A stretch of 64,000 bases of DNA from Escherichia coli (GTDB taxonomy: Bacteria > Pseudomonadota > Gammaproteobacteria > Enterobacterales > Enterobacteriaceae). Shown here in pieces: positions 44,855 through 48,317 of the stretch; positions within the stretch are counted from its first letter, which is position 1, and every line of letters starts with the position of its first letter. The translations under genes and the position numbers were made by a program. The stretch lies in assembly GCF_009931435.1 (NCBI RefSeq), contig NZ_CP043414.1. One strand, written 5' to 3'. The notes beneath the pieces were generated by a model. That model had not been told where the DNA came from, did not search any database, and saw only the letters and a list, made by a program, of their open reading frames with translations.

Positions 44855-45703
44855 ATGAACAACATATTAGGCTCATCAATTAATATGCCCTGTACACTTT
44901 TCGAAACTATTACTTTATTCGATGATTTCTCTGCTGATGATATGCAGTATGGGGATATGGAAGAACAAGATTTTCTCTCACTCGGCTTAAGCGACATCTC
45001 TGCAAAAGTTGATCCTTACCGCCTCATTAAATACCATTTTCCTGGGCCGAATTCTACTTATGGTGCTTTTAGTATTCCAACTTCTGGAACAAAAATATCA
45101 CAAAGTGAATGTATTGATATTTTATTTGCAGAAATGAAAGATCTGGCAAAAATGTTTTCCTTTTTTGGACAATACAAAACACTCATCCAGGATCTGATTG
45201 ATCATTTTAGATATGGAAATGGCAACAGTTTCCATAGCCAGGAATTGAACTTATCTTTTCATGAACGAATAAACAAATATGATTATAATAGCCCAATACG
45301 TGTAATCAAAGAATGTATCGAAAATGATATTTCTTCAACACCTACGATAGGATACCGGCCTCTTCTCCTACAAAAGATTAAGACCGAATTACTTTCATCA
45401 AGACTAAATAAATTCAATGATTTTAAAGATAATTTTAATGGCCTGGGAATCAGCATTCATGATATCTCAGCTCAAAAAATATCTCTTTTAAATTTTCAAA
45501 AATATCCTATGGGCTGGAGCGCTACCATTCATTTCATAGCACAAGACCACTTTGGTTTGGATGTGACTGATATAAAAAACAAGATTTACAACAAGTATAG
45601 ATTTTTTCGCATATGGTTCTTTTTACAACGGCATAAAGACTTTGCTTTCAAACCTTTTTTTACCAATTTTAACACTATCGAAAGAATCGAAAATTATCTA
45701 TGA
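44855..45703 (+). CDS. Hypothetical protein, AT-rich accessory cassette gene A (282 aa, no recognisable domain)
   Basis: ORF MNNILGSSINMPCTLFETITLFDDFSADDMQYGDMEEQDF... preceded by strong RBS AAAGGAG; AT-rich codon usage; no signal peptide, no Walker motif. Confidence 0.6.
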   Translation: MNNILGSSINMPCTLFETITLFDDFSADDMQYGDMEEQDFLSLGLSDISAKVDPYRLIKYHFPGPNSTYGAFSIPTSGTKISQSECIDILFAEMKDLAKMFSFFGQYKTLIQDLIDHFRYGNGNSFHSQELNLSFHERINKYDYNSPIRVIKECIENDISSTPTIGYRPLLLQKIKTELLSSRLNKFNDFKDNFNGLGISIHDISAQKISLLNFQKYPMGWSATIHFIAQDHFGLDVTDIKNKIYNKYRFFRIWFFLQRHKDFAFKPFFTNFNTIERIENYL

Positions 45704-46197
45704 AAAGCAAACTCCAGAAAATTATATTATATTTATTTCTTCTATGCTGCATCTATAATTTATGGACATTGCGTCCTGTACAGATTTTGTATACATACTC
45801 TGATGCTGGCAATTCAGTCTTTCTGGTCGTTGATCATCTGCCATGGACTGATAGCGATAAAATAAATTGGTATCTGAAGCATCAGGATGAAATTAAAAGT
45901 CAAAATCCCCTACCAGAAGGTAGTTGGCATACCTGGTATGTTATTGATATCGGTAATGGCTTCACTGACTATAAAAAATATATCGAAGGGCCGTATGAAG
46001 ATCTCTACTGTTTCCCGACGATTAAGAGCAATGATAATTGCATCGTAAAAAACTATTTAATGGTTATTAATGAATATCCTTACCGTAATACTCATTTTTT
46101 TATTGCTGATAACAATGAGTATCAACTAACCCAGGAAAATAAGATAGAGCGAGTGTTCAACCCGCATGACTTTGAAAAAGACAATTTTCAGCAATAA
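45700..46197 (+). CDS. Hypothetical membrane-anchored/secreted protein, cassette gene B (165 aa)
   Basis: ORF MKSKLQKIILYLFLLCCIYNLWTLRPVQ... with N-terminal hydrophobic anchor; start overlaps gene A stop (ATGA); AT-rich. Confidence 0.6.
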   Translation: MKSKLQKIILYLFLLCCIYNLWTLRPVQILYTYSDAGNSVFLVVDHLPWTDSDKINWYLKHQDEIKSQNPLPEGSWHTWYVIDIGNGFTDYKKYIEGPYEDLYCFPTIKSNDNCIVKNYLMVINEYPYRNTHFFIADNNEYQLTQENKIERVFNPHDFEKDNFQQ

Positions 46198-46232: not shown

Positions 46233-47183
46233 TTACAACCAGTTCTTCCGCTTAAAGTACAGATACGGTGCCAGGCCCGCGAGGATCATAAAGATAATCG
46301 CGCCTGGGTAGCCGAAGCTCCACTTCAGTTCCGGCATAAACTCAAAGTTCATCCCGTAGCTGGAAGCGACCAGCGTCGGTGGCAGGAACACCACGGATAC
46401 CACCGAGAAGATTTTGATGATGCGGTTCTGCTCGATATTGATAAAGCCCATCGCCGCCTGCATCAGGAAGTTCACCTTCTGGAACAGGGATTCGTTATGC
46501 GGCAGCAGGGATTCGATATCTCGCAGGATTTCACGCGCCTGTTCCAGTTGTCCACCCGGTAAACGCGCTTTACGCACCAGGAAATTGAGCGCACGCTGGG
46601 TATCCATAAGACACAGGCGAACTTTCCAGCCGATATCTTCCAGCTCCGCCAGTGTGGAGAGTGCTTCGTCGTACTCATCGCCCTGATGCCCTTCCATAAT
46701 TACCCGGCTCAACTGCTCCAGGTCGCTGTAGATATTTTCAATTTCATCTGCCAACTGTTCGATTTTGGTTTCGAACAGATCCAGCAGCAGCTCGTAGGCG
46801 TTACCGTCCACCATTGACTGGCTACGGGCACGCATACGATACAGACGAAAAGCGGGTAGCTCGCGCTCACGCAGGGTAAACAGGCGACCGTCGCGGATGG
46901 TAAATGCCACAGTGGAGTTACCGGCGTGATCTTCCGCATCTTCAAAGAAGAAGAAGGAGTGAATATGCAGGCCGTCATCGTCTTCAAAGAAACGCGCCGA
47001 TGCTTCGATGTCTTCCAGTTCTGGGCGTGTTGCCAGGCTCTGCCCAAGTTCAGATTGTACGCGCAGTCGCTCGTCGTCATCCGGTTCGACAAGATCAATC
47101 CATACTGCATTTACAAGGGGTTGTGACTCTTCGACTTCCAGCCGGGTCAGTCGGTTATTTTCCAGTTGAAATGCGCTCAGCAT
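46233..47183 (-). CDS. corA: Magnesium/cobalt transport protein CorA
   Basis: Track ORF 46233..47198 trimmed to [31 protein letters not shown]... (316 aa); C-terminal YGMNF motif. Confidence 0.95.
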
Positions 47184-47552
47184 GACCGGGACTCCCAATG
47201 CTTAAAATATCGGACAGTTCGGTGGGCACACAGAAACAAATTGGGTTTCAGACCATTAAACAGCCTGACTCAGCGCGACGGGAAAAATTGAGGTCGCTGA
47301 CAACCGCTAAGGCTATCAGCAAAAAGGGATAGCCTTAGGAGTTGATCCTGGATGACAGGATAATGAGCCAGTATCTACTGGGTGTGTCCAAGGCGAATGT
47401 CCTCTTAGAGTGATCGTGCGCGCATGTTACGCCAGCAAAATTTTGCCGTCAACACGCAACAGAACACCACAGAACAATAGTTGAACTTCGCGCTTTTTGG
47501 TACTCGTCAAGGTCGCTAACAGGATAAAAAAATCCCACATCCAGGACCTATA

Positions 47553-48317
47553 ATGGCGCATCGGCTACTCATTGGTAAAGGAATGATCACCTTGAATCTC
47601 AAACGGATTTTTCTCGCCCTCACCTTACTTCCCTTGTTTGCTGTTGCCGCTGATGATTGCGCATTATCAGATCCGACACTGACCGTACAGGCGTATACCG
47701 TTAATCCTCAAACAGAGCGGGTGAAAATGTACTGGCAAAAAGCCAATGGCGAAGCGTGGGAAACGTTACATGCGCTGCTGACGGATATTAATAGTCAGGG
47801 TCAGGTGCAAATGGCGATGAACGGCAGCATATATGATGAAAGCTATGCGCCGCTCGGTTTGTACATCGAAAACGGTCAGCAGAAGGTGGCGTTAAATCTC
47901 GCTTCAGGTGAAGGGAATTTCTTTATCCGTCCTGGCGGTGTGTTTTATGTCGCGGGAGATAAAGTCGGCATCGTTCGTCTGGATGCCTTTAAAACCAGTA
48001 AAGAGATTCAGTTCGCGGTGCAGTCAGGGCCAATGTTGATGGAAAACGGCGTCATTAATCCGCGTATTCATCCCAACGTCGCCTCACGCAAAATTCGTAA
48101 CGGTGTTGGGATTAATAAACAAGGGAACGCCGTGTTTTTGTTGAGCCAGCAGGTGACAAATTTTTATGATTTTGCCTGTTATGCCAAAACGAAACTGAAC
48201 GTTGAGCAACTGCTTTATCTTGATGGCACGATTTCACATATGTATGTGAAAGGCGGGGCAATCCCGTGGCAACGCTATCCTTTTGTTACCATGATTTCCG
48301 TCGAGCAGAAAAGTTAA
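47553..48317 (+). CDS. yigE: Uncharacterised secreted protein YigE (DUF2233)
   Basis: 254-aa ORF with signal peptide ...RIFLALTLLPLFAVAADD...; matches remembered YigE. Confidence 0.85.
   Translation: MAHRLLIGKGMITLNLKRIFLALTLLPLFAVAADDCALSDPTLTVQAYTVNPQTERVKMYWQKANGEAWETLHALLTDINSQGQVQMAMNGSIYDESYAPLGLYIENGQQKVALNLASGEGNFFIRPGGVFYVAGDKVGIVRLDAFKTSKEIQFAVQSGPMLMENGVINPRIHPNVASRKIRNGVGINKQGNAVFLLSQQVTNFYDFACYAKTKLNVEQLLYLDGTISHMYVKGGAIPWQRYPFVTMISVEQKS

Follow-up and report, generated by a model that had tools for sequence, protein, structure and literature searches.

What does the DNA between the divergent corA and yigE genes of Escherichia coli do? CorA is the main Mg2+ entry route of enterobacteria, and an initial annotation of this locus, made without database searches, described the interval as a long untranslated region upstream of corA that contains short inverted repeats and might allow post-initiation control. 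We analyzed it in its surroundings, a 64,000-nucleotide stretch of E. coli DNA (contig NZ_CP043414.1) that we call the window and whose positions are used throughout. The two flanking genes are placed as follows.

46233 to 47183, minus strand: corA, 316-aa Mg2+/Co2+ transporter, the regulated gene (open reading frame list and RefSeq annotation of a 100%-identical genome).
47553 to 48317, plus strand: yigE, phosphodiester glycosidase family, the divergent neighbor, outside the regulatory element (open reading frame list and RefSeq).

The corA ATG is at 47183 on the minus strand (RefSeq placement 46233 to 47183) and that of yigE at 47553 on the plus strand, which confirms the divergent arrangement and the spacing of about 370 bp given at first; the exact gap is 369 bp (47184-47552). 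A 321-aa, TTG-started version of corA in the open reading frame list is a mechanical upstream extension. The segment 47100-47650 is matched in 5425 of 5426 complete E. coli genomes, nearly all at 99% identity or more, and the intergenic region is identical to that of K-12 BW25113 at 374 of 375 bases. The sole difference is a SNP at 47363 (leader position 55, C to U), which changes codon 10 of the upstream open reading frame corL (below) from Thr to Ile and lies in the variable half of that peptide and in an unpaired linker of the RNA. Since the intergenic region differs from that of K-12 by this one base, experiments performed with K-12 apply directly to the window.

We conclude with high confidence that the minus strand of window positions 47184-47417 encodes the leader of the corA mRNA, which starts from a sigma-70 promoter and acts as a Rho-dependent attenuator of transcription coupled to translation. 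This is no new element but the published corA leader of Salmonella and E. coli K-12; the view that no specific element could be recognized here has therefore given way to a named and published one, the corA leader with corL. A described promoter, a described 234-nt leader and an annotated upstream open reading frame together explain the 369-bp gap fully. This leader is among the best-dissected Rho-dependent attenuators controlled by an upstream open reading frame and its significance is already in the literature, so that our analysis adds modest confirmatory points on its conservation, its evolutionary rate and the lack of an Rfam model for it.

The published work on which this identification draws was done in both species. 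In Salmonella, following earlier work on this leader by Kriner & Groisman (2015, as cited in PMC5314796), Kriner & Groisman (2017) found the RNA to form either stem-loops A+B, of which B leaves a rut site open and thereby favors termination by Rho, or stem-loops C+D, which hide the rut site so that transcription reads through; efficient translation of corL favors B, and a hairpin E and pause sites at U192 and U240 (the latter inside the start codon) tune the site at which Rho acts (PMC5314796). In E. coli K-12, corA expression drops between 20 and 50 uM Mg2+ (Vezina Bedard 2024, PMC11552253), and this regulation requires the corA 5' upstream region and not the promoter. The same study gives corA a Rho termination score of 3.3 by ChIP and describes in vitro termination of the K-12 leader by Rho/NusG at U211 and G216-U220, structure mutants locked ON or OFF that change corA expression as the two-state model predicts, and a rise in corA expression when the corL UUG is changed to AGG and a fall when it is changed to AUG (PMC11552253). 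Thus, the suggestion of a long structured leader with post-initiation control is supported by experiments on a sequence that is 374/375 identical. The published effects are modest and incomplete, and neither Rho nor corL accounts for the whole of the regulation. Regulation is confined to the entry into stationary phase, the Rho R66S substitution weakens Mg2+ repression no further than from about 3.3-fold to 2.4-fold, a 1.3-fold Mg2+ response persists without the corL start codon, and the authors call the Mg2+-sensing step uncharacterized (PMC11552253). A 2025 review tabulates corA among the Rho-dependent attenuators (PMC12360218).

The start of the transcript defines the extent of the leader, and we located the promoter and the leader as follows.

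47424 to 47452, minus strand: corA sigma-70 promoter, -35 TTGACG at 47452-47447, 17-bp spacer, -10 TAACAT at 47429-47424 (consensus scan).
47184 to 47417, minus strand: corA 5' leader, about 234 nt, in which leader position p is window position 47418 - p (published base numbering and fold z).

Published base numbering places the predicted transcription start within 1 nt, at 47416/47417: the Salmonella mutation names G24/C25/C26, G84/G85/C86, T97/C99 and G121/G123 fit only if position 1 is 47417 (an A), and the E. coli termination sites U211, G216 and U220 (PMC11552253) agree with a position 1 at 47416. Such a start lies 7-8 nt downstream of the TTGACG-17-TAACAT promoter. Salmonella leader numbering is offset from that of the window by +2 nt from stem D/E on and by +4 nt at the start codon. 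The idea that corA transcription might begin close to its start codon, proposed at the outset as evidence against a long leader, is not borne out, because the Salmonella corA start codon contains U240, which gives a leader of 238 nt there (PMC5314796), and the same numbering gives one of about 234 nt here. Oligonucleotide oFM4 of the Ptet fusion does not fix the start to the nucleotide, as 'CAC' occurs both at the promoter end and in the native sequence. Of the 369-bp gap, about 234 nt (47417 to 47184) are transcribed leader, and the remaining 135 bp are promoter and upstream DNA.

A GC-rich discriminator, GCGCGC, follows the corA -10 hexamer. The promoter block TAACATGCGC[G/C]CA is found in 79 of the 79 orthologous loci with enough upstream sequence, and in a 16-nt core-promoter block, GCGTAACATGCGC[G/C]CA, which runs from three bases 5' of the -10 hexamer through the discriminator to +1, 15 of the 16 positions do not vary.

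The leader is not devoid of coding sequence, as had been thought, since it carries the following 18-codon open reading frame and ribosome binding site.

47335 to 47391, minus strand: corL (= ysgD), UUG start, 18 codons plus UAA, peptide MDTPSRYWLIILSSRINS, leader 27-83 (translation and RefSeq).
47401 to 47406, minus strand: corL Shine-Dalgarno AAGAGG, leader 12-17, the 5' strand of outer stem A (sequence).

Its UUG, at 47391, lies 8 nt past the AAGAGG, and its stop codon, UAA at 47337-47335 (leader 81-83), lies within CUAAGG. RefSeq labels these coordinates ysgD, 'YsgD/CorL family protein'; the frame was missing from the first open reading frame listing because it is shorter than the 20-aa threshold of that list. 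Translation of ysgD was found by ribosome profiling of stalled initiation complexes with detection of a tagged protein (bioRxiv 10.1101/511675) and confirmed by reporter-transposon mapping (PMC12350097), and the UUG start and regulatory role of corL were shown by experiment (PMC11552253). Hence the term "long untranslated region" was half right: the leader is indeed long, but corL, its key part, is translated, and only about 234 nt of the interval are leader.

Retrieval by means of CorA yielded 80 loci in 80 species, which belong to the Enterobacteriaceae, Erwiniaceae, Pectobacteriaceae, Yersiniaceae and Hafniaceae, and structure tests were made on the 77 distinct leaders among them, with slid models and shuffles as controls. 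A UUG-started corL is present in all 80 loci, with an N-terminus of the form MD(T/A)PS(R/K/T)(Y/C)WL in every one and a length of 17-19 codons (one exception has 25); the sequence of its C-terminal half varies freely. Across the 77 species of five Enterobacterales families the GAGGA of the Shine-Dalgarno sequence is invariant, and corL codons 1, 2, 4, 5, 8 and 9 do not vary at any of their three positions. Because these codons are invariant at synonymous sites, constraint on corL acts at the nucleotide level too, and it does so, besides the peptide, through helices A and A1 and a pairing of leader 47-54 with 146-153. Seven of the eight pairs of this last helix are kept in 76 or 77 of the 77 species, and its terminal A54-U146 pair in 62; the pairing (C47-A54 with U146-G153) was already noted by Kriner & Groisman (PMC5314796).

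The corL 5' half and the core promoter with its GC-rich discriminator are more strictly conserved than the published model needs them to be. We think it improbable that corA initiation is under conserved stringent (ppGpp/DksA-type) control through the discriminator, or that the nascent MDTPSR(Y/C)WL peptide and its mRNA are jointly the Mg2+ sensor, acting through sequence-specific, Mg2+-dependent destabilization or arrest of the ribosome; a literature search for corA with ppGpp and discriminator found nothing relevant, and stringent control, if true, would add a growth-rate input to a promoter described as constitutive. A second candidate reading frame, the AUC-started, 32-codon overlapping CDS177 of PIRT-seq, was rejected as a part of the element: its AUC start is not conserved, and its frame is open in most Enterobacteriaceae (an open frame of such length is unremarkable) and is cut by a UGA in the corL Shine-Dalgarno region in Yersinia, Serratia, Rahnella, Hafnia and Edwardsiella.

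The 236-nt RNA of corA sense folds with -76.5 kcal/mol, against -58.7 +/- 4.5 for dinucleotide shuffles (z = -3.94; none of 200 shuffles as good), and the 135 nt upstream (47418-47552) have no excess structure on either strand (z = -1.67 and -0.02). Folding energy alone cannot assign the strand, because the opposite strand of the leader folds almost equally well (z = -3.38); the assignment rests on gene orientation, the upstream open reading frame and the literature. The inverted repeats noticed at first are real: the string at 47327-47363 singled out in the initial annotation comprises hairpin A2, the strand common to stems A and C and the last corL codons, and contains a perfect 6-bp hairpin, ATCCTG/CAGGAT (47345-47350 with 47356-47361), and one arm of a 17-nt inverted repeat that is 88% complementary (47301-47317 with 47328-47344). 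The predicted helices, in leader numbering, are these.

47322 to 47406, minus strand: stem A three-way junction (OFF), 12-17/91-96 plus 24-30/80-86 (MFE of leader 1-100 and 1-126, and RNAalifold).
47381 to 47368, minus strand: hairpin A1, 37-41/46-50, enclosed by stem A.
47361 to 47345, minus strand: hairpin A2, 57-62/68-73, enclosed by stem A; four pairs with compensatory changes.
47295 to 47321, minus strand: stem-loop B (OFF), 97-107/113-123 (12-pair hairpin of the consensus scan, and RNAalifold).
47301 to 47344, minus strand: stem-loop C (ON), 74-78/113-117 plus 80-90/101-111 (inverted repeat and covariation).
47275 to 47297, minus strand: stem-loop D (ON), 121-125/139-143, GCGAC/GUCGC (covariation).
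47249 to 47267, minus strand: stem-loop E, 151-156/164-169 (RNAalifold).

In the predicted OFF fold, stem A sequesters the Shine-Dalgarno sequence, start codon and stop codon of corL, and stem B leaves the C-rich putative rut segments on its flanks single-stranded. Stem C excludes both A and B and holds the corL stop codon inside its 5' arm, and stem D, which has G121-G123 in common with stem B, sequesters the downstream putative rut segment. The two folds compete for nucleotides 80-90, 101-117 and 121-123 and differ little in energy, with -46.1 kcal/mol for OFF and -44.7 kcal/mol for ON.

Both sets of helices are conserved. RNAalifold on the 77 leaders recovers A, A1, A2, B, a D-like stem and E, and all of the published helices are recovered from these Enterobacterales sequences. 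For the OFF model (A, A1, A2, B, E), 91.8% of cells are paired, against 24-49% in slid controls, with 10 compensatory pairs against 5.8 +/- 1.1 in shuffles; for the ON model (A1, A2, C, D, E) the figures are 95.5% against 21-40%, and 14 against 4.9 +/- 1.4. In neither case did any of 500 shuffles reach the observed count. Since pairing and compensatory changes exceed those of slid controls and shuffles, we conclude that two mutually exclusive folds are both kept by selection. Thus, the folding and covariation analysis proposed in the initial annotation supports a structured leader, with a fold z of -3.94 and with compensatory pairs in each alternative fold.

Individual helices differ in what they contribute. 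The inner helix of stem A is paired in 99.1% of cells, yet is invariant, so that it and the likewise invariant hairpin A1 give no covariation evidence either way. Stem B is paired in 98.9% of cells across the 77 species and agrees with the Salmonella M5/M7 compensatory mutations (PMC5314796). Extended stem C is a 16-bp helix, paired in 96.7% of cells and with four compensatory pairs. Stem D is paired in 100% of cells, with three compensatory pairs, and corresponds, after correction for the +2 nt offset, to the Salmonella pairing of G121/G123 with C145/C143 (PMC5314796); this correction also removes the apparent clash between this register and the published mutation names. A different register for stem D, 119-123/143-147, was rejected, as it is paired in 79.9% of cells against 100% for 121-125/139-143. 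Stem E, paired in 93.8% of cells and with three compensatory pairs, is the equivalent of the Salmonella hairpin 152-172 that controls the location of Rho termination (PMC5314796). We also rejected the long-range helices of the full-length MFE structure (3-11/223-234, 16-24/197-206, 28-36/187-195 and 37-54/146-165), whose covariation is at the level of shuffles: 85.5% of cells are paired, in a structure that came from one of the aligned sequences, with 10 compensatory pairs against 8.4 and 110 of 500 shuffles as high.

Conservation is uneven along the leader. Positions 12-125 have a median identity to E. coli of 88% across species, against 62% for corA third-codon positions, and evolution in the 5' half of the leader is far slower than at synonymous sites of corA. 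In the 3' half, identity falls to about 50% outside Enterobacteriaceae, and conservation is confined to that family. The full architecture (UUG-started corL, stems A-E and core promoter) is kept in all of the approximately 80 species sampled.

Features relevant to Rho action lie at the following positions.

47322 to 47367, minus strand: upstream part of the putative rut site, leader about 51-96, C-rich and G-poor, 5' of stem B (composition).
47280 to 47294, minus strand: second part of the putative rut site, leader 124-138.
47227 to 47237, minus strand: conserved block GUUUCUGUGUG, leader 181-191, with a G-10 Y-1 G+1 pause consensus (near-invariant columns).
47197 to 47206, minus strand: Rho termination sites U211 and G216-U220, from E. 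coli in vitro work (PMC11552253), with coordinates assigned by base identities.

The 30-nt window at leader 51-80 has a C:G ratio of 11:3 and nine YC dinucleotides, and this composition upstream of stem B fits the rut site that has been described as flanking B (PMC11552253), making it a putative site of Rho binding. U190 in the GUUUCUGUGUG block probably corresponds, through the +2 offset, to the major Salmonella pause U192. The mapped Rho termination sites are just 5' of the corA Shine-Dalgarno sequence GGGAG (47192-47196).

These elements suggest the following mechanism. The leader is transcribed from the sigma-70 promoter about 234 nt upstream of corA. At high cytoplasmic Mg2+, efficient translation would bring a ribosome to the corL stop codon; because that codon sits within the 5' arm of stem C, stem C could not form, and stem-loop B would form in its place. 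The C-rich rut segments that flank B would then be single-stranded, and Rho would load and terminate paused polymerases near leader 211-220 and at the corA start codon. At low Mg2+, corL translation would be inefficient or would stall early, formation of stem-loops C and D would make the rut segments inaccessible, and RNA polymerase would enter corA; stem-loop E would further influence where Rho acts. The calculated folds behave in this way: in equilibrium (not kinetic) calculations, blocking pairing at 66-95, as by a ribosome at the corL stop codon, gives stem B, and blocking it at 24-53, as by an early stall, gives stems C and D, so that the modeled folds reproduce the published logic. Published experiment provides the dependence on the leader, the involvement of Rho and the effects of structure mutants and of corL start-codon changes, and our analysis provides the sequence identity, the upstream open reading frame and the two alternative folds, which are close in energy and show both conservation and covariation. 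We infer the exact ribosome positions that choose each fold and the manner in which Mg2+ is sensed.

The leader might instead be a direct Mg2+-sensing riboswitch, in which Mg2+ binding to the RNA, and not corL translation, shifts the balance of A+B against C+D. Such a riboswitch was first proposed for the mgtA leader. The near-equal energies of the A+B and C+D folds and the constraint on the RNA besides the peptide, seen at invariant synonymous positions of corL in the 77 species, would suit it, as would the residual 1.3-fold Mg2+ response of the corL-AGG mutant, whose authors allow a direct structural role of Mg2+ (PMC11552253). However, changing the corL start codon alone shifts corA expression strongly in both directions (PMC11552253), and the leader resembles neither the Mg sensor nor the M-box family when compared with their covariance models. 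We consider direct sensing unlikely as the main mechanism; it could complement corL-coupled attenuation rather than replace it.

A second alternative concerns mRNA stability. If the long duplexes were mainly RNase III substrates, corA would be controlled chiefly by the stability of its mRNA and not by termination. The abundance of corA mRNA depends on RNase III (Lim et al. 2012, as cited in PMC4067347 and PMC11552253), extended stem C is a helix of 16 bp, and ribonucleases have been suggested by the authors of the K-12 study as an explanation of the Rho-independent residue (PMC11552253). Against this, ChIP and in vitro transcription gave direct evidence of termination by Rho (PMC11552253), and no single helix of the leader reaches the roughly 22 bp quoted as a minimum for RNase III (PMC4067347), so that we judge control mainly through RNase III to be distinctly unlikely.

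It is very unlikely that corL/YsgD is primarily a trans-acting small protein and that the surrounding conservation reflects coding function. Chromosomally tagged YsgD does accumulate to detectable levels (bioRxiv 10.1101/511675), reporter-transposon data confirm its translation (PMC12350097) and the N-terminal nonapeptide is kept in 80 of 80 loci; but the sequence of the C-terminal half is unconstrained, the conserved half is invariant at synonymous sites and coincides with helices A, A1 and 47-54/146-153, and cis effects explain all of the genetic data (PMC11552253). Finally, we give almost no credence to a classical Rho-independent attenuator with stem-loop B and a U-run as its intrinsic terminator, since, although the consensus scan flagged a 12-pair hairpin (47322 to 47294) followed by CCTCAATTTT, the U-run is interrupted and lies 6 nt past stem B, the scan found 2 sites against 1.1 +/- 1.0 by chance, the tail after stem B is not conserved across genera, and the published gels show products at 211-220 only, about 90 nt downstream and stimulated by Rho/NusG (PMC11552253). 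None of the caveats on the reading as a corL-coupled, Rho-dependent attenuator points to another identity for the element.

Compared with the published corA leader/corL attenuator, the window has the same upstream open reading frame, stems A-E, C-rich flanks of stem B, pause block and promoter, and, judged from its bases, every defining feature that can be looked for in this way is present. Rfam holds no model for the corA leader: a cmscan search of 46900-47900 on both strands at E <= 10 gave no family for it, and its only three matches, mir-76, tracrRNA and AaHKsRNA54, were at chance level and all far below the gathering score. The same search gave no match at E <= 10 to Mg_sensor (the mgtA leader, RF01056) or to M-box/ykoK (RF00380). 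M-box RNAs, which precede the genes of Mg2+ transporters in Firmicutes and Mycobacterium, have a defined conserved architecture and bind Mg2+ directly. Like the corA leader they act in cis and lower expression of a Mg2+ transporter at high Mg2+; unlike them, the corA leader acts through translation of an upstream open reading frame and Rho.

In its mode of action the element resembles the mgtA/mgtL leader, which also lies upstream of a Mg2+ importer gene, carries a short upstream open reading frame in a 5' three-way junction, forms alternative stem-loops A+B or C, and couples translation of that frame inversely to expression of the downstream gene; Rho-dependent termination has been shown for it in Salmonella (PMC11552253). 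The two differ in that mgtA is under PhoP/PhoQ promoter control and the corA promoter is blind to Mg2+, and in that no involvement of Rho was found for E. coli mgtA (PMC11552253). The peptides differ as well, mgtL having many Pro and acidic residues and corL just one Pro. In tnaC-tnaA, as in corA, translation of a short upstream open reading frame decides the access of Rho to a rut site in the leader (PMC12360218); in tna, however, a ligand-stalled ribosome at the stop codon of that frame physically shields the rut site, whereas in corA the position of the ribosome picks the RNA fold, and efficient translation of the upstream frame promotes termination.

Two stretches of the corA promoter, in the corA-yigE intergenic region, are of note, its core and a short palindrome in its spacer:

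47417-47432, minus strand, corA promoter core GCGTAACATGCGC[G/C]CA, which opens three bases before the -10 hexamer, spans a GC-rich discriminator and ends at +1
47435-47446, perfect 12-nt palindrome GCAAAATTTTGC in the corA promoter spacer

Fifteen of the 16 positions of the core block are invariant across 79 species in five families, and this conservation exceeds what the -10 hexamer alone would need. Promoters under stringent control typically have a GC-rich discriminator. Mg2+ insensitivity is the sole property of the corA promoter given in published work (PMC11552253). The palindrome is flanked by -35 and -10 regions that are partly complementary to each other; Escherichia and some Citrobacter carry it, and its conservation does not extend to other genera.

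Only one position in the whole intergenic region, window 47363, differs from K-12 BW25113; it is a C to U change at position 55 of the corA leader that replaces Thr with Ile at codon 10 of corL, the short upstream ORF, and the affected residue belongs to the variable half of the corL peptide. In the RNA, the changed base sits in the unpaired linker that joins leader hairpins A1 and A2. A second ORF overlapping corL, in the +1 frame relative to it, was taken from a PIRT-seq study (PMC12350097):

47316-47414, minus strand, CDS177, a 32-codon ORF

CDS177 starts with AUC at leader positions 4-6 and ends with UGA within leader stem B. Its frame is open in most Enterobacteriaceae. Yersiniaceae and Hafniaceae have a UGA within the SD region of corL that breaks the frame, and as an ORF CDS177 is therefore not conserved.

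In families other than Enterobacteriaceae, lineage-specific insertions occur in the 3' half of the corA leader, between stem E and the downstream pause block (loci L051-L076 from Yersiniaceae, Pectobacteriaceae and Hafniaceae, and L067, L069, L078 and L081 from Pantoea), and these leaders keep an unchanged 5' half, including corL and stems A-D. One such insertion is about 25 nt long with hairpin-like ends (GGTGA...TCACC), those in Pantoea are 30-45 nt, and the leader of Serratia sp. Ag1 (L072) reaches 323 nt.

On the other side of the intergenic region, translation of yigE from its annotated start at 47553 gives the N-terminus MAHRLLIGKG followed by a typical signal peptide (MITLNLKRIFLALTLLPLFAVAA; window 47553-47585). 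The first codon of this signal peptide is an internal ATG at 47583, which may be the true yigE start; if so, the corA-yigE gap would be 399 bp.

Just downstream of corA, two genes stand where other strains have yigF and yigG:

44855-46197, plus strand, two AT-rich genes

One encodes a 282-aa YPO3983-family protein (TIGR03034, E = 7e-119). The product of the other has 165 aa and is assigned to the DUF943 family in the annotation of other E. coli genomes. This version, with at least 80% of its length covered, is present in about 2600 of 5426 complete E. coli genomes, and the locus is therefore polymorphic within the species.
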